Below are positions 681 to 63,617 of a stretch of DNA of 64,000 bases, piece by piece (position 1 is the first letter of the stretch; the number at the start of each line of letters is the position of its first letter). A program made the position numbers and the translations under genes. Origin of the DNA: an uncultured Planctomycetales bacterium (GTDB taxonomy: Bacteria > Omnitrophota > Gorgyraeia > Gygaellales > Profunditerraquicolaceae). The notes under the pieces are model-generated. The model saw only the letters and a list, made by a program, of their open reading frames with translations. It did not search any database and was not told the origin of the DNA. The DNA lies in NCBI GenBank assembly GCA_964545575.1, contig CAZJFL010000005.1, positions 8,617 through 72,616 on the forward strand, written 5' to 3'.

Positions 681-1496
681 GTGTTAACTAAACGTATAAT
701 CCCTTGTTTAGATATCAAAGACGGCCGGGTAGTAAAGGGTGTCAAATTCTTAGGGCTTCGGGATGCAGGCGACCCGGTAGAAGTAGCCAGGGTCTACGAC
801 CAGCAGGGCGCCGATGAGCTGGTGTTTTTAGATATCACTGCCAGTTTTGAGAACAGAAAAACGCTAGTTGAGCTGGTGGAGGCGATAGCTAAAAATATTT
901 TTATGCCTTTTACCGTCGGCGGAGGGATCAGGGATATAACCGATATCAGGGACCTCTTGAACGCCGGAGCGGATAAGGTATCGATAAATACGGCAGCGGT
1001 AAAATTGCCGGATCTGATCGCGGAGTCTGCGCTGAAGTTCGGCAGCCAGTGTATAGTTGTAGCCATAGATGCTAAGTCGGTTCAGAGTTCAGAGTTCAGA
1101 GTTCAGAGTAAAGAACCAAGAACTATGAACAATGAACCACGAAGTAAAACATGGGAAGTGTACATTAACGGGGGCAGGACGCCGACAGAGCTGGATGCCC
1201 TGGAATGGGCCAAGCAGGCGGCCAATCTGGGAGCAGGCGAGCTCCTACTTACCAGCATGGATTACGACGGCACCAAAGACGGCTATGACATCGGGCTTAC
1301 CAAGCAGATAACCGAGTTAGTGAATATTCCGGTGATTGCTTCCGGAGGCGCAGGCAAGCTGGAGCATTTTTACGATGTCTTTGCCCGCGCAGGGGCGGAT
1401 GCGGCGCTGGCCGCTTCTATTTTTCACTACCAAGAGTATTGCGTTAAAGAGGTAAAAGATTACCTGGAAGGAAAGGGAGTTCCGGTGAGGCTATGA
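681..1496 (+). CDS. hisF: imidazole glycerol phosphate synthase cyclase subunit HisF; GTG start; about 18-aa loop insertion built from heptamer repeats
   Basis: N-terminus [16 protein letters not shown]..., SGGAG and AALAASIFH motifs typical of HisF; 271 aa versus about 253 for canonical HisF. Confidence 0.9.
1080..1107 (+). repeat. (GTTCAGA)x4 tandem heptamer array inside hisF, followed by degenerate 7-nt units to about 1135
   Basis: Read directly: gttcaga gttcaga gttcaga gttcaga gtaaaga accaaga ...; encodes [14 protein letters not shown]... in a loop that is longer than in HisF homologs. Confidence 0.9.
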
Positions 1497-1825
1497 AAAA
1501 GATAAAGTTCGCCGTAAAAAAATTAAAGTTCGATAAAGAAAAACTGATCCCGGCGATAATACAGGATTATAAGACGGATGAAGTATTGATGCTAGCTTAT
1601 ATGAACTCTGAATCCGTCAGGCGGACTTTAAAATCAGGCAAGACCTGTTTCTGGTCGCGTTCGCGCCGGGAATACTGGATAAAAGGAGCGACCTCCGGAA
1701 ATTACCAGTATGTAAAATCAATCGCTTATGATTGCGATATGGATGCGCTGCTGATTAAAGTGAGGCAGGTGGGAGTGGCCTGCCACACCGGCAACCGCTC
1801 GTGTTTCTACAGGAAAATAAAATAA
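1493..1825 (+). CDS. hisI: phosphoribosyl-AMP cyclohydrolase HisI
   Basis: [23 protein letters not shown]...[11 protein letters not shown]...CHTGNRSCF matches the HisI core; overlaps hisF stop by 4 nt. Confidence 0.85.
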
Positions 1826-3312
1826 TGTATTATCCGGCTCTAAAAGAATTCTTAAAGCTATCTAAAAAGGGCAACGTCATCCCGGTCTATAAGGAAATAA
1901 ACGCCGACCTGGATACGCCGGTATCTGCCTTTTTAAAGATTAAAAAAGACGACTACGCTTTTCTCCTGGAATCCGTAGAGGGGCAGGAGAATATTGCGCG
2001 CTATTCTTTTTTAGGCAGTAACCCGTCATTGATTTTTAAAAGCAAGGGGCGCAATATCCGGATCATCCGCCCCAATAAAAAAACAGCGCGTAATTTTAAT
2101 ACCAGAGATGACCCCTTAAGCGAAATCAAAAAAGTGATGCGCGGGTTTCAGGCCGTCCAGATCAAAGGCCTGCCGCGTTTCTCGGGCGGGCTGGTCGGGT
2201 TTATCGGCTATGACATGGTCAGGTTTTTTGAAGAGATAGCGGATAAGAATCCCGATGATTTGCAATTACCGGATGCGGTTTTTATCCTGACCGACACGAT
2301 CCTCGTCTTTGACCATGTCAACCATACCATCAAGATTGTCTCTAATGTTATGCTGCCGAAGGCGCGCGGTGAGGTTTCCAAGACAGAGAAGACCAGGGCT
2401 TATCAGCACGCCCTCAGAAAGATAGAGGTTATCCACCAGGACTTAAAGCGGCCACTGGCAGAGCGCAAAATTGGCTTGACAGCTGTCCCCCGGGCAGCTA
2501 TAGTATCTAACTTTAAAAGAAAGCAATTTTGTGGTATCGTTAATCAGGCCAAGGCCTATATAAAAAAGGGGGATATTATTCAGGCGGTCCTCTCGCAGAG
2601 GTTTAAGCTTAAGATTAAAAAAAGCCCCTTTGATATTTACCGCGCCCTGCGCAGCCTTAACCCTTCCCCCTACATGTTCTTTTTAAAATTAAAGGATCTG
2701 ACCCTGGCAGGCGCTTCTCCGGAGATGCTGGTGCGCGTGGAGGACGGGCGGGTAGAGACCCGCCCCATTGCCGGGACGCGGCCGCGCGGGAAAAATGAGG
2801 TGGAAGATAAAAAACTAGAGAAAGAACTACTCGCTGATATTAAGGAAAAAGCAGAGCATATCATGCTTGTGGATTTGGGGAGAAATGATTTAGGCAGGGT
2901 CTGCCGGGCAGGAGAGGTGAAGGTAAGTGAGTTTATGCATGTGGAAAAATATTCGCACGTGATGCATTTAGTCACCGCAGTAAGCGGAAAGCTGAATAGA
3001 AGATATGATAGTTACGACGTGCTTCGGGCGAGTTTCCCCGCCGGGACAGTCACCGGTAGCCCCAAGATCCGCGCCATGGAGATCATTGACGAGCTGGAAA
3101 ACCTGCGGCGCGGCCCTTATGCCGGCTGCGTGGGTTATTTCAGTTTTTCGCATAATCTGGATACCTGTATTACGCTGCGCACAGTGATCATCAAGGGTAA
3201 TACCGCTTATGTCCAGGCAGGGGCGGGTATCGTCGCGGATTCTGTTCCGGAAAAAGAATATCAGGAGTCGATCAATAAAGCAAAAGCATTAATAGAGGCG
3301 ATTAACGATTAA
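1825..3312 (+). CDS. trpE: anthranilate synthase component I TrpE (ORF track starts at 1801; a TAATG-overlapped start at 1825 is preferred)
   Basis: LLESVEG (TrpE LLES feedback motif) and chorismate-binding C-terminal domain (GAGIVADSVPEKEYQE); encoded apart from trpGDCFBA. Confidence 0.8.
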   Translation: MYYPALKEFLKLSKKGNVIPVYKEINADLDTPVSAFLKIKKDDYAFLLESVEGQENIARYSFLGSNPSLIFKSKGRNIRIIRPNKKTARNFNTRDDPLSEIKKVMRGFQAVQIKGLPRFSGGLVGFIGYDMVRFFEEIADKNPDDLQLPDAVFILTDTILVFDHVNHTIKIVSNVMLPKARGEVSKTEKTRAYQHALRKIEVIHQDLKRPLAERKIGLTAVPRAAIVSNFKRKQFCGIVNQAKAYIKKGDIIQAVLSQRFKLKIKKSPFDIYRALRSLNPSPYMFFLKLKDLTLAGASPEMLVRVEDGRVETRPIAGTRPRGKNEVEDKKLEKELLADIKEKAEHIMLVDLGRNDLGRVCRAGEVKVSEFMHVEKYSHVMHLVTAVSGKLNRRYDSYDVLRASFPAGTVTGSPKIRAMEIIDELENLRRGPYAGCVGYFSFSHNLDTCITLRTVIIKGNTAYVQAGAGIVADSVPEKEYQESINKAKALIEAIND

Positions 3313-3323
3313 AGGAGGAGTAT

Positions 3324-3569
3324 ATGGCAGTAAGAGTCCGTTTAAGAAGGATAGGCAAGAACCCCAAGAAAAGGCCGTTTTTCAGGTTAAGCGTTTTTGA
3401 AGAAACCCGCAACCGCGACGGCAGGTTCATCGAAGAAATAGGTTTTTATAATCCGGTTACCGGAACCGCAAAAATAAAGCAGGAGCGCCTCGATTATTGG
3501 GTGAAAAACGGAGCGCAGGTTTCGCCGACCATCAAGAGTTTAGCCAGAAAAGCCAAAAAGGAGGCATAA
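3324..3569 (+). CDS. rpsP: 30S ribosomal protein S16
   Basis: MAVRVRLRRIGKNPKKRPFFRLSV... is a canonical S16 N-terminus; RBS aggagg upstream. Confidence 0.9.
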   Translation: MAVRVRLRRIGKNPKKRPFFRLSVFEETRNRDGRFIEEIGFYNPVTGTAKIKQERLDYWVKNGAQVSPTIKSLARKAKKEA

Positions 3570-3572
3570 AAA

Positions 3573-3869
3573 ATGCCAGCACAGGCCAATCCGCTAGCAA
3601 GTTTTTTTCCTTTAGTCCTTATTTTTGTTATTTTTTATTTTTTGCTTATCCGCCCGCAAAAGACAAAGGAGAAAGAGCACCAGAAGATGATCAGCGCTCT
3701 TAATAAAAATGACGAAGTGGTCACTTCCGGGGGAATCCACGGGACGATCATCAACGTAAAAGACCGGACCCTGATTTTAAGGATAGACGAAAACGTCAAG
3801 ATAGAAATAGAGAAGAGTTGCATTGTTTATCTAAAGAAGGCGCAAAGCGCAGCCACTCCAGGAGCCTAA
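3573..3869 (+). CDS. yajC: preprotein translocase subunit YajC
   Basis: Single TM helix then ...EVVTSGGIHGTIINVKD... YajC signature; directly precedes secDF. Confidence 0.85.
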   Translation: MPAQANPLASFFPLVLIFVIFYFLLIRPQKTKEKEHQKMISALNKNDEVVTSGGIHGTIINVKDRTLILRIDENVKIEIEKSCIVYLKKAQSAATPGA

Positions 3870-3873
3870 GGTT

Positions 3874-6075: not shown

Positions 6076-6076
6076 C

Positions 6077-6096
6077 CCTGCCTGCCGGCAGGCAGG
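6077..6096. terminator. 20-bp perfect palindrome CCTGCCTGCCGGCAGGCAGG between secDF and mfd; hairpin without a U tract
   Basis: Sequence is its own reverse complement; flanked by aaaagcgcg ... gcgcaaaagcgc. Confidence 0.4.
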
Positions 6097-6116
6097 CGCA
6101 AAAGCGCTAGCGTAAT

Positions 6117-8003: not shown

Positions 8004-8004
8004 G

Positions 8005-8922
8005 ATGAAGAAAATTCCTGCGATCATTTTATTATTTATAGCTTGGGGTTTGGGGTTTGGGATTTGGAATGCCCATGCCCAGGACAAAATCGTGGCTATT
8101 GTCAATAATGACATCGTCACCCAGAAAGACCTGGATGACTTTATCAATGTGATGCGCATCCAGTTATCAGAGGAGCTGCAAGGCAAAGAGCTGGAGAGTA
8201 AAATCCAGTCCATCAAGCTGGATTTGCTGGACAAACTTATCGAAGACCGCCTTATCCTGCAGGAGGCAAAGAAAGAAAAGCTCCGGCCTAACGAAGGCAT
8301 GATCAAGGGTAAAATTGAGGAGATGAAGAAGCATTATGATTCAGAAGAAGCGTTCAACAATGCCTTGGTCAAGCAGGGGCTGGTGCAGGCGGATTTAGAG
8401 GATAAGATCAGGGAGCAGCTCTTGATGCGCGGCATCGTAGAGAGCAAGGTAAAAGCGAGGATTTCGGTCAGCCCTAATGAAGTTATGGATTTTTACCAGA
8501 GGAACATGGAGAAATTCAAGCTCCCCGTGCAGCGCGAACTGGAAGTAATAAGCATGAAAAGCCAGAGCCTGGCCGGCGAGATTTTTAATGGTTTAAAACA
8601 AGGTAAGACCGTGCAAGAGCTTTTAGAGAAATATTCGCTTGTCACAGATAAGATTACCGCGATGCAAAACGGCCAGTTAAGAAAGGATATCGAAGATAAA
8701 ATATTCCAGCTTAATCTTGGCGAGTCAACTGACAGTATTCAGGTCGAAGACAATTATTATATATTTAAATTAGTCGCAATAATCCCTCCGCAGCAGCAAA
8801 CCCTCTCGGAAGTACAAGAAGAAATCCGTTCCTTCCTGCTGGAAGAAAAGATGCAGAAAGAATTAGCCAAGTGGATAGATGAGCTTAAGAAACGTTCCTA
8901 CATCAAAATCTACCAGAATTAG
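8005..8922 (+). CDS. SurA-like periplasmic chaperone / parvulin-type PPIase
   Basis: Signal peptide; SurA N-domain-like IVAIVNNDIVTQKDLD; parvulin-like middle domain; sits between mfd and pdxA as in the classical surA-pdxA-ksgA arrangement. Confidence 0.7.
   Translation: MKKIPAIILLFIAWGLGFGIWNAHAQDKIVAIVNNDIVTQKDLDDFINVMRIQLSEELQGKELESKIQSIKLDLLDKLIEDRLILQEAKKEKLRPNEGMIKGKIEEMKKHYDSEEAFNNALVKQGLVQADLEDKIREQLLMRGIVESKVKARISVSPNEVMDFYQRNMEKFKLPVQRELEVISMKSQSLAGEIFNGLKQGKTVQELLEKYSLVTDKITAMQNGQLRKDIEDKIFQLNLGESTDSIQVEDNYYIFKLVAIIPPQQQTLSEVQEEIRSFLLEEKMQKELAKWIDELKKRSYIKIYQN
8044..8071 (+). repeat. (TTGGGGT)x2-TTGGGAT-TTGGAAT heptamer array encoding the SurA signal-peptide core WGLGFGIW
   Basis: Read directly; same heptamer family as in the lptD and SPOR-protein signal peptides. 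Confidence 0.85.
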
Positions 8923-9856
8923 GGTTGGTATAACCATCGGCGATCCCTCAGGCATAGGCCCTGAGATAACCCTTAAGGCGATAGGTAAATTAAAGGGCAG
9001 GGCGGAGTTTGTTATCATCGGGGATAAATGGGTCATTAATAAGGTTCAGGGTTCAGGGTTCAGGGTTCAGGGTTTTAGGCTGGTAGACTTAAATAATGTA
9101 GCGCATAAAAATTTCTCTTTCGGTAAGATTAAAGCCGAATACGGGAGAGCTTCGGTTGAATATTTAGACAAGGCGCTGGAATTACTCCGGAAAAAAGAAA
9201 TAGATTGCCTGGTTACCTGCCCGATATCTAAGGAAGCAATTAATCTCGCCGGTTTCAAGGGGTTTTCCGGCCATACCGAATACCTGGCAAAATGCCTGGG
9301 GCTAGAAGATTTCGTAATGTTATTATTGAATAAAAAGTTAAAGTTTAGCCTGCTTACCAGGCACGTTCCTTTGAGGGAGGTGCCTTTTAAACTGGACAAA
9401 GAAAAAATAGGCAAGAATATAATTTTGACCATTCGAGCGCTTAAAGACCTGTTTGCCGTCAGGGATCCGCGCATCGTCGTCTGCGGCCTTAACCCGCATG
9501 CCTCGGATAACGGCGTGATCGGAGACGAGGAAAACAGGATGATTAAGCCGGCGCTGGCGAAATTAAGGATAAAGAATGTCTTCGGGCCGTATTCATCCGA
9601 TGTGGCTATCGCCGGGGCCCTGCATAGAAAATACGACTGCGTGATTGCTATCTATCATGATCAGGCGCTTATCCCCCTGAAGCTCTCGGGAAATAATCAG
9701 GGGGTGAATATGACCTTAGGGCTACCTTTTGTCAGGACTTCTCCTTTACACGGCACCGCTTTCGATATCGCCGGAAAAAATATCGCCTCATCCGATTCCT
9801 TGGTAGAAGCGATCAAGCTAGCCACTAGATGCGCCTTAAACCTAAAAAAAGCCTAG
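8879..9856 (+). CDS. pdxA: 4-hydroxythreonine-4-phosphate dehydrogenase PdxA (overlaps surA-like 3' end by 44 nt)
   Basis: GDPSGIGPEI, GHTEY, VCGLNPHA and TLGLPFVRTSPLHGTAFDIAG motifs. Confidence 0.85.
   Translation: MSLRNVPTSKSTRIRVGITIGDPSGIGPEITLKAIGKLKGRAEFVIIGDKWVINKVQGSGFRVQGFRLVDLNNVAHKNFSFGKIKAEYGRASVEYLDKALELLRKKEIDCLVTCPISKEAINLAGFKGFSGHTEYLAKCLGLEDFVMLLLNKKLKFSLLTRHVPLREVPFKLDKEKIGKNIILTIRALKDLFAVRDPRIVVCGLNPHASDNGVIGDEENRMIKPALAKLRIKNVFGPYSSDVAIAGALHRKYDCVIAIYHDQALIPLKLSGNNQGVNMTLGLPFVRTSPLHGTAFDIAGKNIASSDSLVEAIKLATRCALNLKKA
9044..9071 (+). repeat. (GTTCAGG)x4 heptamer array inside pdxA
   Basis: gttcagg gttcagg gttcagg gttcagg gtttt; encodes VQGSGFRVQGF in a variable region. Confidence 0.9.
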
Positions 9857-18870: not shown

Positions 18871-19666
18871 GGCAGAGTTACTCTTTAGCGAGACATTAAA
18901 TTGCAGCCGCACGGATTTATACCTGAATAAGGCCTTGAGGCTAAATAGCGCCCAGGTTTCATTTATAGCCGGCGCCTTAAAAAGAAGATTATCCGGAGAG
19001 CCCCTAGAGTATATCTTAGGCAAGACCGAGTTTATGGGTTTAGAGTTTAAACTGGATGAAAATGTTTTTATCCCCCGGCCGGAGACGGAGCTTCTTGTAG
19101 AGAAGGTATTGGCATTGTTAGAGAACAGAGAACAGAGAACAGAGAACAGAGATATTTTGGAGTTGGGGACGGGTTCAGGATGTATTGCTGTATCTGTGGC
19201 AAAATATCTGGATAATGTCCGCATCACCGCAACGGATATTTCGGAAAAAGCCCTGCAGGTTGCTAGGATAAATGCCAGGATTAATCGCGTAGAAGATAAA
19301 ATCGTATTCTTAAGAAGTAATTTATTTGAGGCGATAAGCGATAAGCGCTATGCGCTATGCGTATGCAATCCTCCCTATATACCCAGCGCAGAAATTGATA
19401 ATTTGCAGCCTGAAGTAAGGCATGAACCGCGCCTCGCCCTGGACGGCGGAGAAGACGGTTTGGATTTTTATCGCCGGATGATTAAAGAGGCCGGGCAGTA
19501 CCTGGAAAAAGACAGTTATCTGATTATGGAGATGGGGTTCGGCCAGAAGGATGCCATAAAAGATATAGTTGGCGCATCAGGGATCTTTAAGACAAATAAG
19601 ATCATTAAAGATTATAGCGGTATAGACAGAATCATATTAGTCAGCAGAGAGGAAAGAGATGGATAA
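18863..19666 (+). CDS. prmC: release factor glutamine N5-methyltransferase PrmC/HemK
   Basis: [14 protein letters not shown] motif and NPPY catalytic motif; downstream of prfA. Confidence 0.85.
19121..19148 (+). repeat. (GAGAACA)x4 heptamer array inside prmC, an insertion of about 5 aa ([10 protein letters not shown]) relative to HemK homologs
   Basis: gagaaca gagaaca gagaaca gagaaca gaga read directly. Confidence 0.9.
19331..19365 (+). repeat. 7-nt periodic block GCGATAAx2-GCGCTATx2-GCGTATG inside prmC just before the NPPY codons
   Basis: gcgataa gcgataa gcgctat gcgctat gcgtatg read directly. Confidence 0.8.
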
Positions 19667-20921: not shown

Positions 20922-21481
20922 TTTTAATGATCGATAATTACGATTCTTTCACCTACAACCTGGTGCAGTATTTAGGGGAATTAGGGCGGGAGGTTTGTGT
21001 TTACCGTAATGACAAAATAACCCTGAATCAGATCAGGAAACTAAAACCCGAAAAGATTTTAATTTCTCCCGGCCCCGGCAGGCCGGAAGATGCCGGGATT
21101 TCCTGCGCCGTGATCAGGGAATTCGCCGGTAAAATCCCCCTTTTAGGGGTCTGCCTCGGTCATCAGGCCATCGGCTATGTTTACGGGGGAAAGATCGTCG
21201 GCGCAAAGAAGCTGATGCACGGCAAAACCTCACCAATTTATCACGCTCGGAAAGGGTTATTCAAAGGGCTGCCCAATCCTTTCCTGGCTACGCGCTATCA
21301 CTCCCTGATTGTAGAGAAAAAATCATTACCGAGGGACCTCTTGATCACGGCCTGGACTAAAGAGGGAGAGATTATGGGCCTTAAACACAAGAAATATCCG
21401 CTTTGGGGAGTGCAGTTTCATCCGGAATCTATTTTAACGCCGGCCGGCAAAGACCTGTTGGCTAACTTCTTAAGACAATGA
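20918..21481 (+). CDS. trpG: anthranilate synthase component II (glutamine amidotransferase) TrpG
   Basis: Class I GATase catalytic triad context (GVCLGHQAI ... HPE); first gene of the trpGDCFBA cluster. Confidence 0.8.
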
Positions 21482-31688: not shown

Positions 31689-32879
31689 ATGAATAACAAG
31701 GGTGTGCATATAAGAACTTTCGGCTGCCAAATGAATGTCCGCGATTCGGAAGTCATCTGCGGGCTGCTAAAGAAAGAGGGGTATAAAATAGTAGACGAGC
31801 CGAAGAAGGCAGATATCCTAATTTTTAATACCTGTTCCGTCAGGCAGCATGCAGAAGAAAAAATTTGGTCGGCGTTAGGTAAACTCAGGGTTCATAGTTT
31901 AGCTAAGCCCACAATTGGGCTTATCGGCTGTATGGCACAGAATTACAAAGAGAAAATTTTTGAACGCGCGCCAAACGTTGATTTTGTAATCGGCCCATCC
32001 GATATTGCCAAGATTCCTGAGATGATTTCACGGTTCACGGTTCACGGTTCTCGGTTATCGCAATCAGGAAATAAACGAACACCGAACACCGAACACCGAA
32101 CACCGAGCGCTGAGCTCTTTGAGCGCAAAATCTGGGAAACTGATGGCGATATCCGGCCGGAAGAAATTTATCATACCGGATTTTACGAAGACAAAAATCA
32201 CGCCTATGTGGTCATTTCCGAGGGCTGCTCTAATTTCTGCTCTTATTGCGTAGTGCCTTATGTGCGGGGCCCTTTACATAACCGAAATCATAAGGATATA
32301 TTAAAAGAGATAGAAGGGGCAGTGGAGCAGGGTATAACCCGGATTACCCTTCTGGGGCAAAATGTTAGCGCTTATAAAGATAATCAAGTTGGGTTCGTGG
32401 AATTAGTTAAATTAGTTGAATTAGTGAAGGGGTTGGAGGAGTTTAGTTTTATTACATCTCATCCGAAAGATACATCGGCCGAGCTGTTTAAAGCCATGCG
32501 CGATAGGGGAAAATTAAAAAAATACCTGCATCTTCCGGTGCAGTCCGGATCAGACCGGATTTTGCAATTGATGAACCGCGGATACACCCGAAAATTTTAT
32601 TTAGGTTTAATAGATAATTATCGTAAAGTAGTAAAAAATGGCGTGTTGACTACGGATATAATTGTTGGCTTTCCGGGCGAGACCGAAGATGATTTCAAGG
32701 ATACATATAATTTAGTTAAAGAGGTACAATTTGACGCGGCCTATATTTTTAAATATTCTCCCCGGCCGAATACCCAAGCCGAAAAGTTAGGTGATGGTGT
32801 GCCTAAAAACGAGAAAGAGAGCAGGCACGCGCTTATACTAGAATTGCAGAAGAAGATATCTAAGAGTAAAAAATGTTAA
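31689..32879 (+). CDS. miaB: MiaB-like radical-SAM methylthiotransferase (tRNA-i6A37 2-methylthiolation); about 25-aa linker insertion; TRAM domain apparently absent
   Basis: MTTase N-domain cysteines (FGCQMN...NTCSVR...GCMAQ), radical SAM CSNFCSYCVVPY; only 396 aa; miaA two genes downstream. Confidence 0.75.
   Translation: MNNKGVHIRTFGCQMNVRDSEVICGLLKKEGYKIVDEPKKADILIFNTCSVRQHAEEKIWSALGKLRVHSLAKPTIGLIGCMAQNYKEKIFERAPNVDFVIGPSDIAKIPEMISRFTVHGSRLSQSGNKRTPNTEHRTPSAELFERKIWETDGDIRPEEIYHTGFYEDKNHAYVVISEGCSNFCSYCVVPYVRGPLHNRNHKDILKEIEGAVEQGITRITLLGQNVSAYKDNQVGFVELVKLVELVKGLEEFSFITSHPKDTSAELFKAMRDRGKLKKYLHLPVQSGSDRILQLMNRGYTRKFYLGLIDNYRKVVKNGVLTTDIIVGFPGETEDDFKDTYNLVKEVQFDAAYIFKYSPRPNTQAEKLGDGVPKNEKESRHALILELQKKISKSKKC
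32027..32061 (+). repeat. (TTCACGG)x3 + TTCTCGG + TTATCGC heptamer array inside the miaB-like linker
   Basis: ttcacgg ttcacgg ttcacgg ttctcgg ttatcgc read directly. Confidence 0.9.
32076..32103 (+). repeat. (CGAACAC)x4 heptamer array inside the miaB-like linker, 15 nt after the previous array
   Basis: cgaacac cgaacac cgaacac cgaacac cgag; encodes NTEHRTPNTEHRTPS-like low complexity. Confidence 0.9.
32399..32425 (+). repeat. 9-nt tandem repeat GAATTAGTT-AAATTAGTT-GAATTAGTG inside miaB-like (encodes ELVKLVELV)
   Basis: Read directly. Confidence 0.8.
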
Positions 32880-46943: not shown

Positions 46944-49088
46944 ATGCAAAAATATTTAAAATTATTTAATTTTGTTTTTTTAGTTTGGATTTTGATATTT
47001 GGATTTTGGATTTATGCATCTGCCCAGGCGCACAAAGACTCGATAATCATTAACGGCGATACCGTGGAATACTCCACAGAGAAAAATGAAGCTACCGCCA
47101 TAGGTAACATTGTGATAAATTACAAAGGCGCGATACTCACCTGTGATAAGTTAACGATCAATACCCTCACCAAAGAAGGTATTGCCGAGGGAAACGCAAA
47201 GCTAGAAGATGAAAGGGGGGTTATTACCGGTTCCAAGATCACTTATAATTTTAATACTAAGGCCGGTACGATCATTGACGCCGGTTTCCGGTCTAATCCT
47301 TATTTCGGCAAGGCCGAAAGGATAGAAAAGATAAACGATCGGGAGTTTATCTCGCTTGGCGGTTATATGAGTACCTGTAACTATGACCATCCGCACTACA
47401 GCATCGGGTCAAAAAAGATAGATTTCTTCCCCAAAGATAAAGTAGAGATTAAGGGCGCTGCGGTTCATCTTTTGGGTATCCCGATATTATATCTGCCCAA
47501 ATTTACCCATAGCCTGGTTGAGGATAGACCTAAAATAATGAATATACAGGTCTCTCCCGGCATGAGAAAAGAATGGGGCCCTTATCTGCTTACCGGCTGG
47601 CGTTATAACCTTACGGAAAACATTATGGGCAGGCTTTACCTGGATTACCGCTCGAAGCTGGGGGTAAGCGAAGGCGTGGGTTTTAATTATAGGTCGCCGG
47701 TGGGCAACGGAGACTTTAAGTTTTATTACACCCAGGAACATCCGCAAAACCATCCCGTAGAAGGCCCTGATGAGTTTGAAAGGTATTTTGCGCGCCTACG
47801 CCATAAATGGGATATAGACAAACGCACGAATCTCACCGTAGAGTATTATAAGATCGCCGACCAGGAAAGAAGGCTGCCTCTCTATCCGGGCGATTTATTA
47901 AAAGATTATTTTTACCGCGAATACGAAAAGAATTCCCAGCCGGTATCTTACGCCCTGCTTTATCATAATTTCAGTTATTCCAGCCTCGGCTTGCTTTTAC
48001 AGAGGCGCACTAACCACTGGTATGAACAGCTCAATAAAACCCCGGAGCTGTCTTATAGTTTGCCCAGCATACGTATCGGCAGCACCCCGTTTTATTTTGA
48101 AAACAATACTACCGCCGCAAACTTTGACAAAAAGGCAACCACCTACCCTTACACCAGCGATGATGTAACCGTATCCAGATTTGATACCAGCAATACCCTT
48201 TCCCTGCCGCTTAAGCTATTCTTTGTAGAGTTTACGCCCTTCGTAGCCGGACGCGAGACTGTCTATGATAAGGGCGCAGGCGGTTTTTCCGTTCCGAAAA
48301 GGACGATATTCTCTGGCGGGGCAAACTTAAGCACCAAAATTTTCCGCCTATTTGATGTTAAATCGGATTTCTTGGGGCTAGATATAAACGGCATCCGGCA
48401 CATCATTACGCCGATAGTAAAGTATGTCTATAACCACCGACCGACCATCTCCGCCAGCAAGCTTCAGCAGATAGATGCGATTGATTCTCTCGCTGCAAGC
48501 GAATATATCTCTTTGGAATTATCCAATAAACTGCAGACAAAGAGAGAAGGAAAGGCTGTAGACCTGGCGAACTTGCGCATAAACACGTTATACAATTTGA
48601 AGACTAAAGACGGCCCCGGCTCAAGTTTTTCCGATTTTTACCTGGATCTGGAATTGCGCCCTTATGCATGGCTGCGTATTAAGTCCGACGCTAGCTACGG
48701 CTATAAAGAAAAATACTTTAAGGAAGCCAACGTCAATTTATACGCTACCTTAGGTAAAGAAAGGTATCTAGGCGTCGGCCACCGGTATTTGAGGGGCGGC
48801 GGCAAAGAGATGACTTCGGAATTGGCCTGGCGGCTGAACCCTAAGTGGAAATTCAAGGTATACGAACGTTATCAATTTGCAGATTCCCAGAGCCGCGGAC
48901 TGATGGAACAGGAATATACATTAACCCGCGACCTGCATTGCTGGGAGACCGATATCAGTTATAATATCAGTAAAACAGACGGCCATACCCTGTGGTTTGT
49001 GTTCAGGTTAAAGGCCTTTCCGGAGCTTGAGTTTGGCTTCCAGCAGAGTTACCACCCGGATCAGTCAGGCTCCCAATCTAACCCTTAA
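46944..49088 (+). CDS. lptD: LPS-assembly outer-membrane protein LptD
   Basis: Signal peptide; OstA-like N-domain (IINGDTVEYSTEKNEATAIGNIVINYKGAILTCDKLTIN...); about 600-aa beta-rich C-terminal domain. Confidence 0.75.
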   Translation: MQKYLKLFNFVFLVWILIFGFWIYASAQAHKDSIIINGDTVEYSTEKNEATAIGNIVINYKGAILTCDKLTINTLTKEGIAEGNAKLEDERGVITGSKITYNFNTKAGTIIDAGFRSNPYFGKAERIEKINDREFISLGGYMSTCNYDHPHYSIGSKKIDFFPKDKVEIKGAAVHLLGIPILYLPKFTHSLVEDRPKIMNIQVSPGMRKEWGPYLLTGWRYNLTENIMGRLYLDYRSKLGVSEGVGFNYRSPVGNGDFKFYYTQEHPQNHPVEGPDEFERYFARLRHKWDIDKRTNLTVEYYKIADQERRLPLYPGDLLKDYFYREYEKNSQPVSYALLYHNFSYSSLGLLLQRRTNHWYEQLNKTPELSYSLPSIRIGSTPFYFENNTTAANFDKKATTYPYTSDDVTVSRFDTSNTLSLPLKLFFVEFTPFVAGRETVYDKGAGGFSVPKRTIFSGGANLSTKIFRLFDVKSDFLGLDINGIRHIITPIVKYVYNHRPTISASKLQQIDAIDSLAASEYISLELSNKLQTKREGKAVDLANLRINTLYNLKTKDGPGSSFSDFYLDLELRPYAWLRIKSDASYGYKEKYFKEANVNLYATLGKERYLGVGHRYLRGGGKEMTSELAWRLNPKWKFKVYERYQFADSQSRGLMEQEYTLTRDLHCWETDISYNISKTDGHTLWFVFRLKAFPELEFGFQQSYHPDQSGSQSNP
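46984..47011 (+). repeat. (TTTGGAT)x4 heptamer array (one TTTGATA variant) encoding the LptD signal-peptide core ILIFGFWI
   Basis: tttggat tttgata tttggat tttggat read directly. Confidence 0.85.
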
Positions 49089-54400: not shown

Positions 54401-54418
54401 GTTGTCTGCTCATTTTAC

Positions 54419-55003: not shown

Positions 55004-55031
55004 AACAACTTGTTTGTAGCAAAGAATCAGA

Positions 55032-55061: not shown

Positions 55062-55070
55062 AAATATTTT

Positions 55071-57032: not shown

Positions 57033-57125
57033 TTTCGCTTTAATTTTGTTAATTTTTCTTGCAGGGCGGTTCTTTTTGTATTAGAATATAAACATATTGG
57101 AATATAATATAGTTAGGTTGATTTT

Positions 57126-58496: not shown

Positions 58497-59679
58497 TAAT
58501 AGGCGCGGTATAACACTCTTAGCTGCATACCTGGTAATAGCAGTCCTGGCTATTTTAGGCACTGCCTTTGTGGTGCGCAGCATCTCCGAAGGCCTGACCA
58601 TAAAAAAACATGCGGATTCAAGCAACGCTTTTTGGATTGCGGAGACGGGTATACAGAAAGCCTTGTGGGAGAAAAATTATAACAATTGCGCAAACTGCAC
58701 TAGTTGTGGTTCCAGCCTTTGCCTGAATGGAAATTTAGCTTCGGGTAGCTATAGTGTGACTATCAGCGGTACGGTAATTACCTCAGTTGGCACTTCTTCT
58801 CTGGGCGCAATCAGGAGAATCAGGGTTGATACCATAGGCGGCTCTCCGTTTACTTATGCGATGTTCGGGGCAAGCTCCATATATATGACAAACAACGCCC
58901 ATACCGACAGCTATGATTCTTCCTTAGGGCCTTACGGCGGCGATAACGCATATCATAACGGAGACGTCGGCACTAACGGCACGGCTACGGGCGCGATAAC
59001 CATATTAAATAACGGCGTCATAGAAGGAGATGCTAATACCGGCCCGGGAGGGACAATCGAGAAGTCGCAAAATGCCGAAATTACCGGAGATATAACCCAC
59101 GACAATAATATCTCATTACCTCTGGTTTATGCCCCGCAGGGTTTTACTACAGAGCCCGGAGGAGACCTGAATGTGTCCGGAGACGAGACGCCGACGCTTA
59201 ATTCAGGCGATTATAGATACAACTCCATAAGCATAAGCAATAATGCCATATTGACTATCAGCGGCACGGTAAGAATTTATGTGACCAGCACCGCTCAAGC
59301 GCTAGAGATCCTCAATAACGCGCATCTCAATATCGCTAGCGGGGCTAATTTAGTCCTTTATAGCGACGGTAAGTGCGATCTGGGCAATAACGGATTAGTG
59401 AATAATACTGCAAAGCCGGAGAATTTTGTCTTATGGAGCGCTTATTCCGGAAGTAACGGCGTGCAGATTAACAATAACGGAAATATGTACGGCGTAATCT
59501 ATGCCCCCAACGCAAACATCTCGGTTACTAATAACGGCAGCATATTCGGCTCTATTATAGGAAATGAACTGAGTGTTTCAAATAACGCGCATGTTCATTA
59601 CGACGAACATTTACCTCAGGTGTTATCTTATCCGGAAGGAAATTCCAAGATTTCCGTTAAGAACTGGCAGGAACTATAA
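58486..59679 (+). CDS. PilX-N-domain large minor pilin / putative pilus-tip protein with Asn/Gly-rich beta-helix-like repeats
   Basis: RRGITLLAAYLVIAVLAILGTAFVVRS...NAFWIAETGIQKAL (PilX_N-like); Cys cluster NCANCTSCGSSLC; repeated NNGxI/NNAHL units. Confidence 0.6.
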   Translation: MGINNRRGITLLAAYLVIAVLAILGTAFVVRSISEGLTIKKHADSSNAFWIAETGIQKALWEKNYNNCANCTSCGSSLCLNGNLASGSYSVTISGTVITSVGTSSLGAIRRIRVDTIGGSPFTYAMFGASSIYMTNNAHTDSYDSSLGPYGGDNAYHNGDVGTNGTATGAITILNNGVIEGDANTGPGGTIEKSQNAEITGDITHDNNISLPLVYAPQGFTTEPGGDLNVSGDETPTLNSGDYRYNSISISNNAILTISGTVRIYVTSTAQALEILNNAHLNIASGANLVLYSDGKCDLGNNGLVNNTAKPENFVLWSAYSGSNGVQINNNGNMYGVIYAPNANISVTNNGSIFGSIIGNELSVSNNAHVHYDEHLPQVLSYPEGNSKISVKNWQEL

Positions 59680-59739
59680 AATGTTTTTTAAAACTCTTAA
59701 ATTTAGCCGCTAGTTTGGCTAAGAAAGGGAGGCCGGAAG

Positions 59740-61077
59740 ATGAAAATAAATAATAAACGCGGGATAGCCCTGATAGCCGCTTATATGGTGATTGCGGTTT
59801 TGAGTTTCTTGAGCGCTGCCTTTGTGATCAGGAGCACTTCTGAGAGCCGGACAATTCGCGGGTATGAAAATTCCAACAAGGCATTCTGGCTTGCAGAGGC
59901 CGGTATCCAGAAGGCGCTCTGGGACATAAATTATAATGGCTGCAGCCAGTGTTGCGGTGTGCCTTACACGGCCTGTACTCACGCCTGTTCTACGCCGTGG
60001 TGCATGCAGATCACTGCCGATGGTTATGATGTGAAAAAAGACGGCTCGACGATTATTTCCACTGCTACTGTCGGGGAGGCTCCGTCTCCGCGGGTCACGC
60101 GCACAATTCAGGTAACGCTTGGCACCGGCACAACGCCCAAACCTTTTACTTCTCCGATTTTTGGAAATTCCTCGATACATATGTATCAGAATGCATTGAC
60201 GGATAGCTACGATTCTTTAAAAGGACCTTACGAGGACCAGCTCGGGGCTAATCGTTCAATGAATGGCAGTGTAGGTACAAACGGAAGTATGCCAGGAGTT
60301 GTCACCATAGATAATAACGGCTATATATATGGCATGACAACTACCGTAGGAGGAACAGTAGAGAAGGCTAATGGCGCTTACATTTATTGCCAAGCTTGCC
60401 CACTAGGCGGAGAAGAATGCGAGAACGACTGTATAAACAATCTTGCTAAGACTCGGGATTTACCTCTTATCGATGCTCCTGATGAGCTTAAAAACGCGCT
60501 TACTGAAGGGCCATATACGGTTCTTAAGAGTGCGTCCGCGATTTTACCCATGGGCGACCACCGTTATGATTCAATTAACATAGGGATTGGTGGGACATTG
60601 AATGTCAGCGGTAAGACGCGGCTCTACCTTACCGCGGCACAAGCAATAGATATTGGTAATAATGGAGTAATCCATATTATGCCGGGAGCCAGCCTGACAA
60701 TCTATACTACAGGTTCCGCTAATCTGGGGAATAACGGTTTGTTCAATGATACGCAATTTCCGAAGAATTTCATACTTTACAGCACGTATTCCGGGCCAAA
60801 CGTAATGACTATTTCTAATAACGTTGATTGGTACGGAGCGATTTATGCCCCTAATACGAATATAACAATCACTAATAACGGCCGCCTCTTTGGCGCTATC
60901 GTGGGCAACAATCTTAATGTTTTTAACAATGCGCAAATTCATTTTGACGAACAGCTCCAGACTGTAACGGGAACAGAAACACCCCCCCCCTCGGAGAAAC
61001 CATCCATAACCAGCTGGCAGGAATGCAAGTACCCAGACTGTCATCAAGACCTAGGCGGAGGCGCGGGAGGCCTGTAA
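59740..61077 (+). CDS. paralog of the 58486 gene: PilX-N-domain putative tip protein with Cys-rich module
   Basis: KRGIALIAAYMVIAVLSFLSAAFVIRS...KAFWLAEAGIQKAL; CSQCCGVPYTACTHACSTPWC; C-terminus NNGRLFGAIVGNNLNVFNNAQIHFDEQL parallels the upstream paralog. Confidence 0.6.
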   Translation: MKINNKRGIALIAAYMVIAVLSFLSAAFVIRSTSESRTIRGYENSNKAFWLAEAGIQKALWDINYNGCSQCCGVPYTACTHACSTPWCMQITADGYDVKKDGSTIISTATVGEAPSPRVTRTIQVTLGTGTTPKPFTSPIFGNSSIHMYQNALTDSYDSLKGPYEDQLGANRSMNGSVGTNGSMPGVVTIDNNGYIYGMTTTVGGTVEKANGAYIYCQACPLGGEECENDCINNLAKTRDLPLIDAPDELKNALTEGPYTVLKSASAILPMGDHRYDSINIGIGGTLNVSGKTRLYLTAAQAIDIGNNGVIHIMPGASLTIYTTGSANLGNNGLFNDTQFPKNFILYSTYSGPNVMTISNNVDWYGAIYAPNTNITITNNGRLFGAIVGNNLNVFNNAQIHFDEQLQTVTGTETPPPSEKPSITSWQECKYPDCHQDLGGGAGGL

Positions 61078-61080
61078 AAC

Positions 61081-62079
61081 ATGGATTTATTTAAGCCCAA
61101 AGAAAAATTTTCGCTGGGGCTGGATATCGGCACCTCCCAGATAAAGCTGGTAAAATTAAAGCTGGGCAAGGATACGACCGAACTTTGCGCCTTTGCCATT
61201 GAGCCGTTTCAGGACAGCCCGCTGGCGGCGTTAAAGAAAATTGCCGCGGCAGAAGCGGTTAAGAAAGTAAACATCTCTGTTTCCGGCCCCGCGGCAATTA
61301 TCAGGTATGTAAACCTGCCCCGCATGAACACGGAAGAGCTGAGGCAGTCATTAAAGTTCGAGGCGGAAAAACATATTCCCTTCCCCGCATCCGAAGTAAA
61401 TACCGATGCCTCTATTTTAAAAGCCGACTTACCGGATAATAAAATGCTGGTTTTGATCGCCGCGGTAAAAAAAGAGTTCGTCAACCAGCGCATAAAATTA
61501 GTCGAAGAGGCCGGTTTAAAAGTTAATGCCATAGATATCGATTCGCTCGCCATTATCAATGCCTTTAATTTCAATTATCCCGGAAGCGATAATCCTAAGG
61601 CCGTGGGGTTATTGAATATCGGCGCGACCTATAGCAACCTCAATATTCTGGAGGGGGCTCTCCCGCGCCTGAGCCGCGATATACATATTGCCGGAAATAG
61701 CTTTACGCGGAAGGTTTCCGATGCCCTGACTTTGGACAAGGAGCCTATAGAGGCATTAAAGGTCAGCCCGGATAAAGAGCATGCCGATAGGTCAAGCGCT
61801 AGTGTTGACGCATCTTTTTTGCAATTAGTCGGTGAAATAAGGACATCTTTCGATTATTATGAAAGCCAGAGCGCTTCTTCCGTAACCAAGATTTTCTTAA
61901 GCGGGGGAGCCAGCCTTTTTCCCGGGCTTAAGGATAACTTGGCTAATATGTTGGGCATAGAAGTAGATTATTGGGACCCCATAAAGCAGCTCACTCTTTC
62001 CAGCAGAGTCGATAGAGAAGCCATAAAAGCAGTGTCTCTGGAATTAGCCACGGCAGTAGGCCTGAGTTTGCGTTTTTAA
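61081..62079 (+). CDS. pilM: type IV pilus assembly protein PilM (actin-like ATPase fold)
   Basis: FSLGLDIGTSQIKLVKL N-terminus; 332 aa; followed by pilNOPQ. Confidence 0.85.
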   Translation: MDLFKPKEKFSLGLDIGTSQIKLVKLKLGKDTTELCAFAIEPFQDSPLAALKKIAAAEAVKKVNISVSGPAAIIRYVNLPRMNTEELRQSLKFEAEKHIPFPASEVNTDASILKADLPDNKMLVLIAAVKKEFVNQRIKLVEEAGLKVNAIDIDSLAIINAFNFNYPGSDNPKAVGLLNIGATYSNLNILEGALPRLSRDIHIAGNSFTRKVSDALTLDKEPIEALKVSPDKEHADRSSASVDASFLQLVGEIRTSFDYYESQSASSVTKIFLSGGASLFPGLKDNLANMLGIEVDYWDPIKQLTLSSRVDREAIKAVSLELATAVGLSLRF

Positions 62080-62081
62080 AA

Positions 62082-62657
62082 ATGATAGAGATAAACCTTC
62101 TACCTCAGGAATTAAAACATAAACCTAAGAAACCGGGTATCGACTTTGAGTCTAAAGAGACGCTTTATTTTATCCCGCTTGTTGTAGGTGTAATTTTAAT
62201 CCTGCATGTTTTCCTTGGCGGCATACTTGTTTTAAGGAATTTTCAGGCTGTCGGGATGAACGCAAGATGGCAGAAATTGGAGTCGCAAAGAAAGGCCTTG
62301 GAGGTTTTTCGCAGCGAAGCCGCGCATCTTTCGGCGGATGCCTTAGCCCTGCAGCAAATCCATGATAAAACCATAAAATGGGCCCCGAAATTAAACAAAC
62401 TAAGCCTTGATTTACCCTCGGGGATATGGTTCAGGAGCATTAATTTTACCTCCAATCTTCTGGACATCCGCGCATCGGTGGTATCCCTAAAGATGAGCGA
62501 GTTGGTTCTGATTAACCAGTACATAGATAATCTTAAGAAAGATAATGATTTCTTTGCCGATTTCTCAAAACTTGACCTTGATTCCGTGGAAAAAAAGAAA
62601 ATCGGCGGCTACGAAATAGCCGAATTCTCACTGGCCGCTAAGCCGAAAGAAAAATGA
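62082..62657 (+). CDS. pilN: type IV pilus assembly protein PilN
   Basis: MIEINLLPQELK N-terminus, single TM, 191 aa. Confidence 0.8.
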   Translation: MIEINLLPQELKHKPKKPGIDFESKETLYFIPLVVGVILILHVFLGGILVLRNFQAVGMNARWQKLESQRKALEVFRSEAAHLSADALALQQIHDKTIKWAPKLNKLSLDLPSGIWFRSINFTSNLLDIRASVVSLKMSELVLINQYIDNLKKDNDFFADFSKLDLDSVEKKKIGGYEIAEFSLAAKPKEK

Positions 62658-63220
62658 CGCAGATATTAAGCAAATTACAAAATTTTCCCCTCGATAAGAA
62701 GAAAATAATAGCGATCCTGGCCTTTGTCGCAGTGCTTGTTTTCTTAGACGTGTCTTTTATAATCAAGGCACAGATTAAAAGCATAAAGAATGTTTCGGGA
62801 AAAGTCGCAAATTTAAAGAAAAAAATTGATACACTAAACAATGAGCTCGCCCTAATGAAGCAGGTGCAGGTAGAACGCAAACTTAAGGTGCCGCCCAAGG
62901 TAAAAAAAATAATTTCCGGAAGCGACCTTCCCGCTCTGATACAGGATATAGATGCGCTGGCAAAGAAGAATAACGTCAGAGTCACCCAGATAAAACCCGG
63001 TTGGAGCATGGGCGATCAAAAAATCGCCGTCGGTAATTTCTCCCCGGTTTCCATACTGCTGGAGATGAATTGTAATTACCATCAGTTCGGCAGCTTTATA
63101 AATGATTTAGAAAATGCGCAGAATTTTATAGCGGTTGAACAGATGGAGATCGTGCCGCTTGGGAATGATTGTTTTCAGCAAAAGATAAAGCTTCTTTTAA
63201 GGACATATGTTAAAAAGTAG
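62654..63220 (+). CDS. pilO: type IV pilus assembly protein PilO
   Basis: Single TM, coiled coil, 188 aa; position between pilN and pilP. Confidence 0.7.
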   Translation: MTQILSKLQNFPLDKKKIIAILAFVAVLVFLDVSFIIKAQIKSIKNVSGKVANLKKKIDTLNNELALMKQVQVERKLKVPPKVKKIISGSDLPALIQDIDALAKKNNVRVTQIKPGWSMGDQKIAVGNFSPVSILLEMNCNYHQFGSFINDLENAQNFIAVEQMEIVPLGNDCFQQKIKLLLRTYVKK

Positions 63221-63617
63221 GATTAGTTCGGGGTTCAGCGTTCAGCGTTCAGTGCTTTTCGTCATAGGTATTTTGTTATTTTCTTCATTGCTAAAGTTTT
63301 CTTTAGCGCAAAACGATTATGTTTATGACTCAAAAGGCAAGCGCGACCCTTTTATTCCTCTGGTAAGCCCCGCAGGTGTGTTGGTGAAATTAGATAAGGA
63401 TGAAGGGACGGTGGCGTCTGAGCTAAAAATCGAGGGTATCATCTTCGACAAAAACGGAGCCTCCTATGCCATTGTGGGCGCAAAAGTAGTCAGGGTCGGG
63501 GATTCAATCACCGACGGATGCCAAGTTTTAAAAATAGAACAGGATAAAGTTATTTTTATTAAAGAGGGCGTGCCTTTGGAGATCCATTTGAAGGAGGATA
63601 GCAATAATGCTAAATAG
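63207..63617 (+). CDS. pilP: type IV pilus assembly lipoprotein-like PilP
   Basis: Signal peptide, RDPFIPL motif, beta-rich C-terminal domain; immediately upstream of pilQ. Confidence 0.7.
   Translation: MLKSRISSGFSVQRSVLFVIGILLFSSLLKFSLAQNDYVYDSKGKRDPFIPLVSPAGVLVKLDKDEGTVASELKIEGIIFDKNGASYAIVGAKVVRVGDSITDGCQVLKIEQDKVIFIKEGVPLEIHLKEDSNNAK
63233..63253 (+). repeat. GTTCAGC-GTTCAGC-GTTCAGT heptamer array in the pilP 5' region (encodes GFSVQRSV)
   Basis: Read directly; same GTTCAGN family as in hisF and pdxA. Confidence 0.85.

Follow-up and report, generated by a model that had tools for sequence, protein, structure and literature searches.

Tandem heptanucleotide arrays in housekeeping genes of an Omnitrophota genome: probable members of a dispersed family of four-unit DNA repeats

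A stretch of 64,000 nt from an uncultured member of the Omnitrophota (contig CAZJFL010000005.1; it is called here the window, by which the whole stretch is meant) raises the question of why tandem arrays of a 7-nt unit should lie, in frame, inside conserved genes such as hisF, pdxA, prmC and a miaB-like gene. An earlier note on this DNA had pointed out several such arrays, had ascribed them to a lineage-specific process that seeds 7-bp duplications at GTTC-containing sites, and knew of no described system to match them. Ten period-7 arrays were found in the window, all of them in frame within genes of the + strand. Our analysis suggests that these probably belong to a family of miniature repeats dispersed in the DNA, each a module of four heptamers, which have been filtered by selection and homogenised by copying.

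Two of the arrays lie in hisF. Arm A consists of 4.3 copies of GTTCAGA (1080-1109), with GTAAAGAA as the flank next to it; arm B (1111-1143) is imperfect (AAGAACC AAGAACT ATGAACA ATGAACC ACGAA), its GAAC core constant and its spacers varying. Arm A falls inside a 23-aa insert (HisF residues 135-157) that has no counterpart in solved HisF structures, and the hisF loop measures 75 nt in the window as compared to 15 nt in many relatives. The pdxA gene carries GGTTCAG x4.6 (GTTCAGG x4) at 9043-9074; the length of its segment, 72 nt, does not depend on whether an array is present, and there is thus no net insertion. In prmC there are two sites, the first with AGAGAAC x4.7 (GAGAACA x4) at codon 86 (19120-19152) and the second with two copies of GCGATAA followed by two of GCGCTAT in an AABB pattern (19331-19366). 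The loop of the miaB-like gene, 61 aa long in the window versus 39-41 aa in homologs, contains arm A, TTCACGG x4.3 (CGGTTCA CGGTTCA CGGTTCT CGGTTAT; 32027-32056), and arm B, CGAACAC x4.4 (32076-32106). The other three arrays are N-terminal: one encodes part of the signal peptide of a SurA-like protein (TTGGGGT TTGGGGT TTGGGAT TTGGAAT; 8043-8070), just before the AQ/QDK cleavage region, one that of LptD (TTTGGAT x4.3, coding for VWILIFGFWIY; 46984-47013), and one the N-terminus of a pilP-like gene product (GTTCGGG GTTCAGC GTTCAGC GTTCAGT; 63226-63253, the exact part being 63233-63252). A possible decayed array, weak in itself, may be seen at another site of the miaB-like gene (AGGGTTCAT AGTTTAG CTAAGCC; 31887-31909), where L098, the relative nearest to the window (75-77% identity), has a third miaB array, CGAAAAC x4.4. 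Pfam matches identified HisF, the SurA-like protein, PdxA, PrmC, the MiaB-like radical-SAM methylthiotransferase and LptD, and the label pilP follows from the position of the gene between pilO and a secretin gene together with a sub-threshold T2SSB match. A contig of the same genome (L095), which adds 10 kb to the window, contains a further array in rpe, made of ATCAAAW units.

The arrays of the earlier note were thus located where it had placed them, and its statement that the hisF and miaB loops exceed those of homologs was borne out. Its list was incomplete, as arm B of hisF and the arrays in the SurA and LptD signal peptides had been overlooked, and the pilP array, given there as three units, in fact has four.

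The frequency of these arrays was compared with expectation by shuffling (19-nt threshold, 300 shuffles for each test). Seven exact period-7 arrays were present within ORFs (open reading frames), against 0.003 expected when codon order was shuffled and 0.06 when synonymous codons were shuffled and the peptide kept, which is far more than chance would give. Among exact tandems of at least 2.8 copies in the window, six had a period of 7, and none had a period of 5, 6 or 8-12. Since synonymous shuffles abolish the periodicity, the period-7 signal is not caused by protein sequence. Together with the occurrence of the same arrays between genes, described below, this upholds the view that the underlying process is lineage-specific and acts at the level of DNA. 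Selection for a repeated peptide was also considered, and was ruled out by the synonymous shuffles (0.06 against 7), by the intergenic arrays and by the finding that the peptides differ between genomes. Recurrence at a distance of 7 nt was seen for GTTC in 11 cases, where 0.33 were expected, and for GAAC in nine, where 0.28 were expected; no other spacing stood out.

Could the arrays have been created by assembly or sequencing? Assemblies of ENA, JGI, NCBI and Logan contain the exact HisF and MiaB-like proteins, on contigs of up to 105 kb, and ten contigs that represent one population sampled in different places or times of collection, that is in different samples (L001, L086-L094), were compared. 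The 4.3-copy hisF array and its B arm were identical in all five contigs that span them (L001, L086-L089), which derive from different samples. Three Logan contigs from independent assemblies (L090, L092, L093) start at window base 1080, the first base of the hisF array, and this shows that the array breaks some assembly graphs; such breaks would be compatible with a second occurrence of the 30-mer, in the genome or in the community, or with differences between strains in the sequence upstream. It is the only point that speaks for an artefact, which we regard as extremely improbable: at 28-34 nt the arrays are shorter than reads, they are identical in MEGAHIT, JGI and Logan assemblies of different samples, similar arrays occur in metagenome-assembled genomes (MAGs) from many studies and assemblers, and the reading frames of conserved proteins are preserved.

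The same uniformity bears on the possibility that the arrays are contingency loci, switching their genes by changes in copy number. The gain or loss of one unit would cause a frameshift, and phase variation by heptanucleotides is known from other bacteria; the host genes are, however, housekeeping genes (hisF, pdxA, prmC, miaB, surA, lptD), arrays are equally common between genes, about four copies are seen in every genome and at every site, and the hisF array shows no variation in copy number among the five spanning consensus assemblies. The arrays therefore do not present the features of phase-variable contingency loci, and this explanation, already doubted in the earlier note, is highly unlikely.

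To place the arrays in a wider context, a census of repeats was made with Tandem Repeats Finder over the window and 85 loci of relatives, 1.4 Mb in all. Arrays with a period of 7 numbered 79, as compared to 17 with a period of 8 and one each with periods of 5 and 6. Most of the period-7 arrays (51 of 79) had 4.0-5.0 copies and only five had more than 5. In the relatives, 38 of 69 arrays lay in ORFs and 31 between genes, and the median copy number was 4.3 in both settings; as the median is equal in coding and intergenic DNA, the size of the module is not fixed by the reading frame. The intergenic arrays are mostly inverted pairs, in which one array is followed by a short loop and then by a second array that approximates the reverse complement of the first. 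They adjoin ribosome-binding sites or a tRNA gene, and many precede a start codon by 15-30 nt. Two loci of Kiritimatiellota, which are distant SecDF relatives, likewise carry arrays with a period of 7, in 3.7-4.6 copies (L079, 2667-2698 and 7658-7689; L081, 1032-1063, 1533-1562 and 20422-20447), and the four-heptamer module thus extends beyond Omnitrophota.

Orthologous positions in the relatives were read via synteny around SecDF and an M16 peptidase gene, and the homologs of prmC and miaB were reached by protein homology and then through the contigs that encode them. The SecDF protein of the window is 75-81% identical to those of many Candidatus Omnitrophota MAGs, and at the DNA level the relatives are 66-70% identical to the window; despite this distance, their arrays are internally perfect. 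Arrays were found at the same gene positions as in the window, with other units. The hisF loop contains AAGACGG x5 in L006, and it contains GTACAGA x4 in L008, GTCTAC(A/G) x4 in L003, GTCCACA in L028 and GTCCA(C/T)A x4 in L009, these four with GTAAAGAA behind them as in the window; in L009 GACCATG x3 comes next. A minimal loop of 15 nt was present in 10 of the 28 relatives examined. The same codons of pdxA bear GTACAGA x4 in L008, ATCAAAA x4 in L011, ACTCAAA/ACTCAGA x4 in L012 and AACCAGA-like units in L017, and decayed period-7 remnants in L052 and L031. Four-unit arrays also occupy the SurA signal peptide (GGTACTN in L008, TGCCATA in L011, TTACACN in L017, TACTNNC in L027). Site 1 of prmC has, at the identical offset of codon 86, GTCAAGC x4.3 in L085 and decayed heptamers beginning with GT in L082 and L083; site 2 has TCGACCA x4.7 in L082, ACCTACA x4.7 in L083 and TTACGGA x4.7 in L085. 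Two of these genomes also have arrays in the ArgRS gene, AAAGCTC (L082) and AAACTCA (L085), at codons 215 and 217. The loops of 120 MiaB homologs fall mainly into two length classes, 39-41 aa and 46 aa; runs of identity at a lag of seven residues were seen in 14 homologs, where 0.75 would be expected, and nine or more different peptides are involved.

These results are at odds with the proposal that GTTC is the target at which the arrays are seeded, because the same codons carry GTAC, GTCC, GTCT, ATCA and further units in relatives; GTTC is the present core of the family in this genome and not a property of the site. When the units of different genomes were compared in register, identity averaged 5.1 of 7 positions at hisF and 3.5 of 7 at pdxA, as compared to 2.55 at unrelated sites. 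Such values point to descent with modification, in that the arrays of hisF, and likewise those of pdxA, each go back to a common array whose units have all changed jointly. The lengths of the pdxA segment (51, 72, 93 and 114 nt) match steps of 21 nt; those of hisF do not, and a simple series of steps of plus or minus 21 nt was therefore not relied upon.

Within a genome, the units of different arrays resemble each other. Pairs of arrays matching at six or more of the seven positions made up 17-19% of pairs within a genome and 3.3% of pairs between genomes, and the similarity within genomes was significant by permutation (p<=0.0004), also when neighbouring arrays were merged. In the genome of the window (74 kb including L095), GTTC or GAAC was found in 7 of about 13 arrays (binomial p=1.6e-6). 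The earlier claim that all arrays but one contain this core thus holds as an enrichment and not as a rule, the SurA and LptD arrays having no GTTC; the GTTTWGA/TCWAAAC palindrome and the ATCAAAW array of rpe, both in L095, likewise mark the core as a bias. Other genomes have families of their own: GTAC in hisF, pdxA and SurA of L008, GTCC in L009 and L028, GTCGAT in L006, and GTTCAT in two separate inverted pairs of L024. As to the frequency of the core itself, GTTC/GAAC is neither rare nor common in the window (observed/expected 0.94), and restriction-type avoidance was set aside as an explanation of the core, there being no depletion and no link to a restriction system. The most depleted tetranucleotides of the window are GTAC (0.60), GATC (0.67), CTAG (0.70) and GGAC/GTCC (0.71); of this set, GTAC also serves as the array core in L008, and GTCC does so in L009 and L028.

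More direct signs of copying were found in relatives. L042 has two copies of 39 nt that are 97% identical and share irregular units as well as a TTAAGA flank, and the B arm of hisF in L009 is 85% identical to an intergenic copy. Among the candidates named in the earlier note a short mobile sequence accordingly fits best, in that dispersed copies in the relatives share irregular variants and flanks. L009 and L055 are 83.5% identical, and their alignment is interrupted precisely at the array elements: in these places array palindromes take up 140-250 nt in L009, as compared to 4-40 nt in L055. Arrays are gained or lost rapidly, and their turnover is fast. At shorter range, arm A of miaB in L098 reads CGGCTAT CGGCTAT CGGTTCT CGGTTAT: units 1 and 2 differ as a pair from those of the window, and units 3 and 4 are the same, which is a length-neutral homogenisation of neighbouring units. 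Arm B has 5.4 perfect units in L098 and the same total length in both, the fifth unit having diverged in the window.

Could ordinary replication slippage account for these arrays? They would then be microsatellites generated in place, with no exchange between loci, and their shared cores would stem from descent or from composition. Heptanucleotides have been reported to be the most abundant long simple repeats in many bacteria, with slippage or footprinting of the polymerase as the suggested cause (Mrazek et al., 2007, as summarised in PMC4679880); the AABB and ABAB patterns of prmC site 2, of pdxA in L012 and of hisF in L003 suit local duplication, and the window and L098 differ only by local changes of units. 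Slippage, however, alters length in steps of 7 nt, and yet about four copies are found in coding and non-coding DNA alike; intermediates with a single unit more or less would shift the frame of essential genes, and the copy number in hisF is invariant across the spanning contigs. Neither would slippage in place give scattered copies with irregular units and non-repeat flanks in common, units that are significantly more similar within genomes than between them, or inverted arms that change their core jointly. On balance slippage of this kind is an improbable explanation.

The inverted arrangement of the arms gives many of the elements the potential to form a hairpin. Eight pairs of arms were folded, of which five had z-scores of -5 to -7 and the other three of -2.2 to -3.8, the weaker ones including the pair of L042 (z -3.8) and the miaB pair of the window (z -2.2). 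The hisF pair of the window (1074-1150) folds as RNA with -24.9 kcal/mol (z -6.5), its arms pairing unit by unit. The hisF insert of L009 folds likewise, and between the window (GTTCA:TGAAC) and L009 (GTCCA:TGGAC) the core is changed on both arms. When 19 arm pairs were folded in both orientations the sense strand was the better one in 12 (p=0.17), and three coding pairs were more stable on the antisense strand. As folding shows no significant bias towards the sense strand, a role of the hairpin at the RNA level is not supported.

A related possibility is that the arrays are functional sites, bound by a DNA- or RNA-binding protein whose specificity differs between genomes and which recognises a core of 4-5 nt every 7 nt, four times over, in order to regulate transcription or translation or to organise the chromosome. 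Arrays that bind proteins with such a spacing exist: the omega repressor binds heptad arrays, and HutP binds UAG triplets at 7-nt spacing. The geometry of omega or ribbon-helix-helix operators, 7-bp heptads in direct and inverted orientation, matches that of the present arrays, but their location inside ORFs does not. Binding would fit the module size shared by coding and intergenic copies, the many intergenic copies 15-30 nt upstream of starts, and the decayed arrays, which tend to keep a contiguous core while the spacer varies (arm B of hisF; SurA in L008 and L017). Regulatory roles have moreover been proposed for the H4 elements of Geobacter (PMC2700814) and for TAACTGA repeats (PMC4679880), and a Nostoc preprint, in which heptamer repeats affect the expression of a reporter, suggests effects of this kind. 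Set against this are the presence of at least five unrelated units in one genome (GTTCAGN, TTGGGGT, TTTGGAT, GCGATAA, GTTTWGA/ATCAAAW), the position of arrays well inside housekeeping ORFs that share no functional theme, the presence or absence of whole elements between close relatives, and the folding results above, in which a sense-strand bias was absent and coding pairs folded better in antisense. The conservation of the core in coding B arms can also be attributed in part to the avoidance of stop codons. We therefore consider it unlikely that binding sites are what the arrays are.

The dispersal of the repeats would also be explained if they were non-autonomous mobile elements of the REP/REPIN or MITE kind, mobilised by an enzyme encoded elsewhere which sets both the core and the length of four units. 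Dispersed near-identical copies in relatives, hairpin architecture, genome-specific cores and presence or absence between close relatives all agree with this, as does the entry of a second, unrelated repeat into the MiaB loop, since it shows that short elements do enter. No gene for a transposase, a RAYT-like protein or a reverse transcriptase is found in the window, however, and neither target-site duplications nor terminal inverted repeats were noticed at the borders of the elements in the loci inspected. The pdxA segment has the same length where no array is present, which resembles replacement or decay and not insertion, and units of the same genome differ in their spacers and yet are perfect inside each array. 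Mobile elements in this strict sense are hence a doubtful explanation. A plain transposon or recombinase footprint, another candidate of the earlier note, explains neither four perfect units nor the equal size of the module in coding and non-coding DNA.

The second repeat of the MiaB loop was observed in 33 of the 120 homologs (P0124-P0184), where a different in-frame short repeat aligns with window positions 32010-32130 and encodes GQSP, GDSP, GTVP or GESP. The MiaB loop thus hosts two unrelated kinds of short repeat. From the four peptides we infer a single palindromic element in the DNA, GGGACAGTCCC-like, whose reading frame differs from case to case. A 23-nt direct repeat in L095 (6418-6480; two copies of AAGGGACACTTCTTCACCCAATC, followed by GAAGAAGTGTCCCC), which forms a GGGACA...TGTCCC hairpin and is situated about 1.8 kb past the end of the window, after the secretin gene, may be related to it.

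The fact that all arrays of the window are in frame does not call for a mechanism of its own. A tandem heptamer of at least three units is read in all three frames, and a unit whose cyclic sequence includes a stop codon consequently cannot code on that strand. Units with a stop on at least one strand were found in 27 of the 31 intergenic arrays, 10 of which have stops on both, and only 2 of the 38 coding arrays have a sense-strand stop in the consensus unit. The hisF arms illustrate the constraint: the perfect complement of GTTCAGA, TCTGAAC, contains TGA, which would be in frame in hisF, and arm B retains GAAC with varied spacers and no in-frame stop, as is likewise the case in miaB. The host positions, too, are tolerant in kind: a hairpin turn in the case of HisF, loops in that of PdxA, PrmC, MiaB and ArgRS, and signal peptides in three further proteins. 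To account for arrays that are in frame and proteins that are full-length, purifying selection suffices.

Taken together, these results are best accommodated by a dispersed family of miniature four-heptamer repeats, filtered by selection and homogenised by copying, and we hold this explanation to be probable. The module consists of about four tandem 7-nt units (28-34 nt), often as two inverted arms with hairpin potential, in a family that is common in this branch of the Omnitrophota. Directly shown are the arrays themselves with their period and four-unit size, the orthology of their positions together with the exchange of units, the likeness of units within a genome, the dispersed copies, the potential for hairpins, the filter of stops and frame, and a consensus copy number that is constant across samples. 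Its copies would survive only where they are tolerated: in spacers near ribosome-binding sites and tRNA genes, and, inside genes, at positions open to nearly any peptide, namely surface loops of HisF, PdxA, PrmC, MiaB, ArgRS and Rpe and the signal peptides of SurA, LptD and the PilP-like protein. The sites would be old, being common to genomes at about 70% nucleotide identity, and the sequence at each site would be young; units would be homogenised again and again at constant length and would converge on families specific to the genome. We infer a copying mechanism behind this homogenisation, which might be template switching or gene conversion and would act inside an array, from arm to arm and across loci; copying within arrays would homogenise them, and copying between arrays probably takes part as well. 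The whole would amount to concerted evolution of a dispersed repeat family, with the encoded peptides as passengers.

Several observations weigh against this explanation. Copying between loci is shown only in L042 and L009, and no shared flanks or irregular variants were found between arrays within the window. The GTTC/GAAC core is limited to about half of the arrays in the genome of the window. At SurA (1.8) and at prmC site 2 (2.2), the in-register identity of units is at chance level, so that an ancestral array and repeated insertion at a permissive or preferred site are indistinguishable there; and with the poor resolution of the SecDF tree, a gain at hisF cannot be told from a loss. A scan of the ORFs of the window with Pfam, which returned housekeeping genes or no match, revealed no transposase, recombinase, reverse transcriptase or RAYT-like gene. 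The sequences compared are all metagenome assemblies, and the comparison is thus one of consensus sequences. Finally, a contiguous core of 4-5 nt is retained in 18 of 37 decayed arrays, against 9.8 expected (p about 0.002), and this core and the ceiling of four units, neither of which is predicted by neutral copying, hint at a ruler or a binding factor.

In an additional scenario, which is rather unlikely, the four-heptamer module would not arise as a side effect of slippage but would be made by a dedicated machinery, programmed by sequence, that has a register of 7 nt and a ruler of four repeats and rewrites the same chromosomal sites again and again, including those in essential genes. Candidates would be a transposase or other recombining enzyme (recombinase), a polymerase that copies from a template, and a tetrameric binding protein by which conversion is directed, each with a specificity that depends on the genome; they share in the low probability given to this scenario as a whole. 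If it were true, the same kind of machinery would also underlie the four-heptamer elements of Geobacter, Xanthomonas and cyanobacteria.

Some further features of the window and of its neighbours were recorded. All of the roughly 59 ORFs of at least 100 aa that were taken as genes lie on the + strand (1-64000); ORFs account for about 96% of its length, each 4-kb bin has a positive GC skew, and the run of co-oriented genes is unusually long. A search with Rfam cmscan at gathering thresholds over the window and four loci returned tRNAs only. Two copies of CGATTAA (3299-3312) overlap the stop codon of a chorismate-binding (TrpE/PabB-like) gene, 12 nt before rpsP, and in L024 and L006 full heptamer arrays are situated in the spacer upstream of the gene that begins with MAVHIR, which is rpsP in the genome of the window. 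The palindrome of L095 (11883-12013) is an intergenic structure of 130 nt, built of TCWAAAC/GTTTWGA heptamers centred on CTGATCAG, with an aldehyde-dehydrogenase gene and a nucleotidyltransferase gene as its neighbours; L026, at 66% nucleotide identity, carries arrays of the same TCWAAAC/GTTTWGA family at 20937-21179. In L098 a gene for a large serine recombinase (Resolvase, Recombinase and Zn_ribbon_recom domains, 556 aa; 110-1780) is located directly upstream of miaB, a 23-nt repeat occurs twice at 158-202, and the alignment with the window begins only at the miaB gene.

No published description of such repeats in Omnitrophota was found in the literature searched, but precedents in other phyla correct the earlier impression that no described system resembles them: Geobacter (PMC2700814), Xanthomonas and Nostoc (PMC4692102) and Beggiatoaceae (PMC4679880). 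The repeats belong to a known and mechanistically unexplained class of bacterial heptamer repeats, for which this is a new phylum. Geobacter metallireducens contains 49 H4 elements of four tandem heptanucleotides, with the consensus GGACCGG, within and between genes (Aklujkar et al., 2009, PMC2700814). The H4 elements resemble the present arrays in their four 7-nt units per module, their dozens of copies and their genome-specific consensus, and other repeat classes of that genome come in strand-switching pairs; they differ in having a GC-rich, unrelated unit and in belonging to another phylum, and they were called putative regulatory RNA elements without a test. Their description involved no comparison of orthologous sites, no unit turnover and no frame or stop filter. 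In Xanthomonas and Nostoc, heptamer repeats of the GGGNATC type prefer four units (Rehm et al., 2015, PMC4692102), which was ascribed there to the four G-tracts of a quadruplex. The Omnitrophota units (GTTCAGA, ATCAAAA, TGCCATA) have no G-tracts and display the same preference, and the arrays of the window are all coding; a four-unit preference in units that are unable to form G-quadruplexes weakens the quadruplex explanation for Xanthomonas and Nostoc as well. TAACTGA direct repeats are found next to start codons in marine Beggiatoaceae and in some Cyanobacteria and Bacteroidetes, and are confined by their stop codons to non-coding DNA in one orientation (MacGregor, 2015, PMC4679880). In that case one unit recurs across distant phyla, suggesting horizontal transfer, whereas here units differ even between related genomes.

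The STRR of cyanobacteria (short tandemly repeated repetitive sequences), which Mazel and co-workers reportedly described in 1990, are said to be tandem heptanucleotides with several strain-specific units per genome and high dispersion; they are generally held to be mostly intergenic, often to form longer arrays, and to be a feature of heterocystous cyanobacteria. Small dispersed repeats of Nostoc, reported by Elhai and colleagues in 2008, are likewise said to be associated with tandem heptamers and to be able to lie within genes. STRR, TAACTGA and GGGNATC repeats are mainly intergenic, in contrast to the present arrays and those of Geobacter H4, which are found both within and between genes. 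All the traits of the STRR and H4 type were observed here: a 7-nt head-to-tail unit, dispersed families specific to the genome, about four units, and both genic and intergenic positions. With REP and REPIN elements, which are associated with RAYT transposases (Bertels and Rainey, 2011, PMC3116915), and with MITEs the arrays have in common short, dispersed, hairpin-forming copies and, in the former, genome-specific families that evolve within genomes. REP elements, however, are extragenic, are not tandem heptamers, and have a known cognate transposase, of which there is none in the window. As far as could be found, what is new is the view of orthologous sites, the four-unit preference without quadruplex potential and the filter of frame and stops, set out explicitly.

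Bacterial heptanucleotide repeats have been on record since 1990. This clade provides a comparative handle beyond earlier descriptions of single genomes, as the array persists and the unit is replaced at the same gene positions, and the constraints of frame and stop codons act as a built-in reporter of the changes that are allowed. A dedicated driver, should there be one, could realistically be found by phylogenetic profiling in this clade. For the organisms themselves, the finding means that non-coding repeat families can add 10-23 residues to conserved enzymes such as HisF, MiaB and PrmC, which affects the annotation and alignment of proteins from uncultured lineages.

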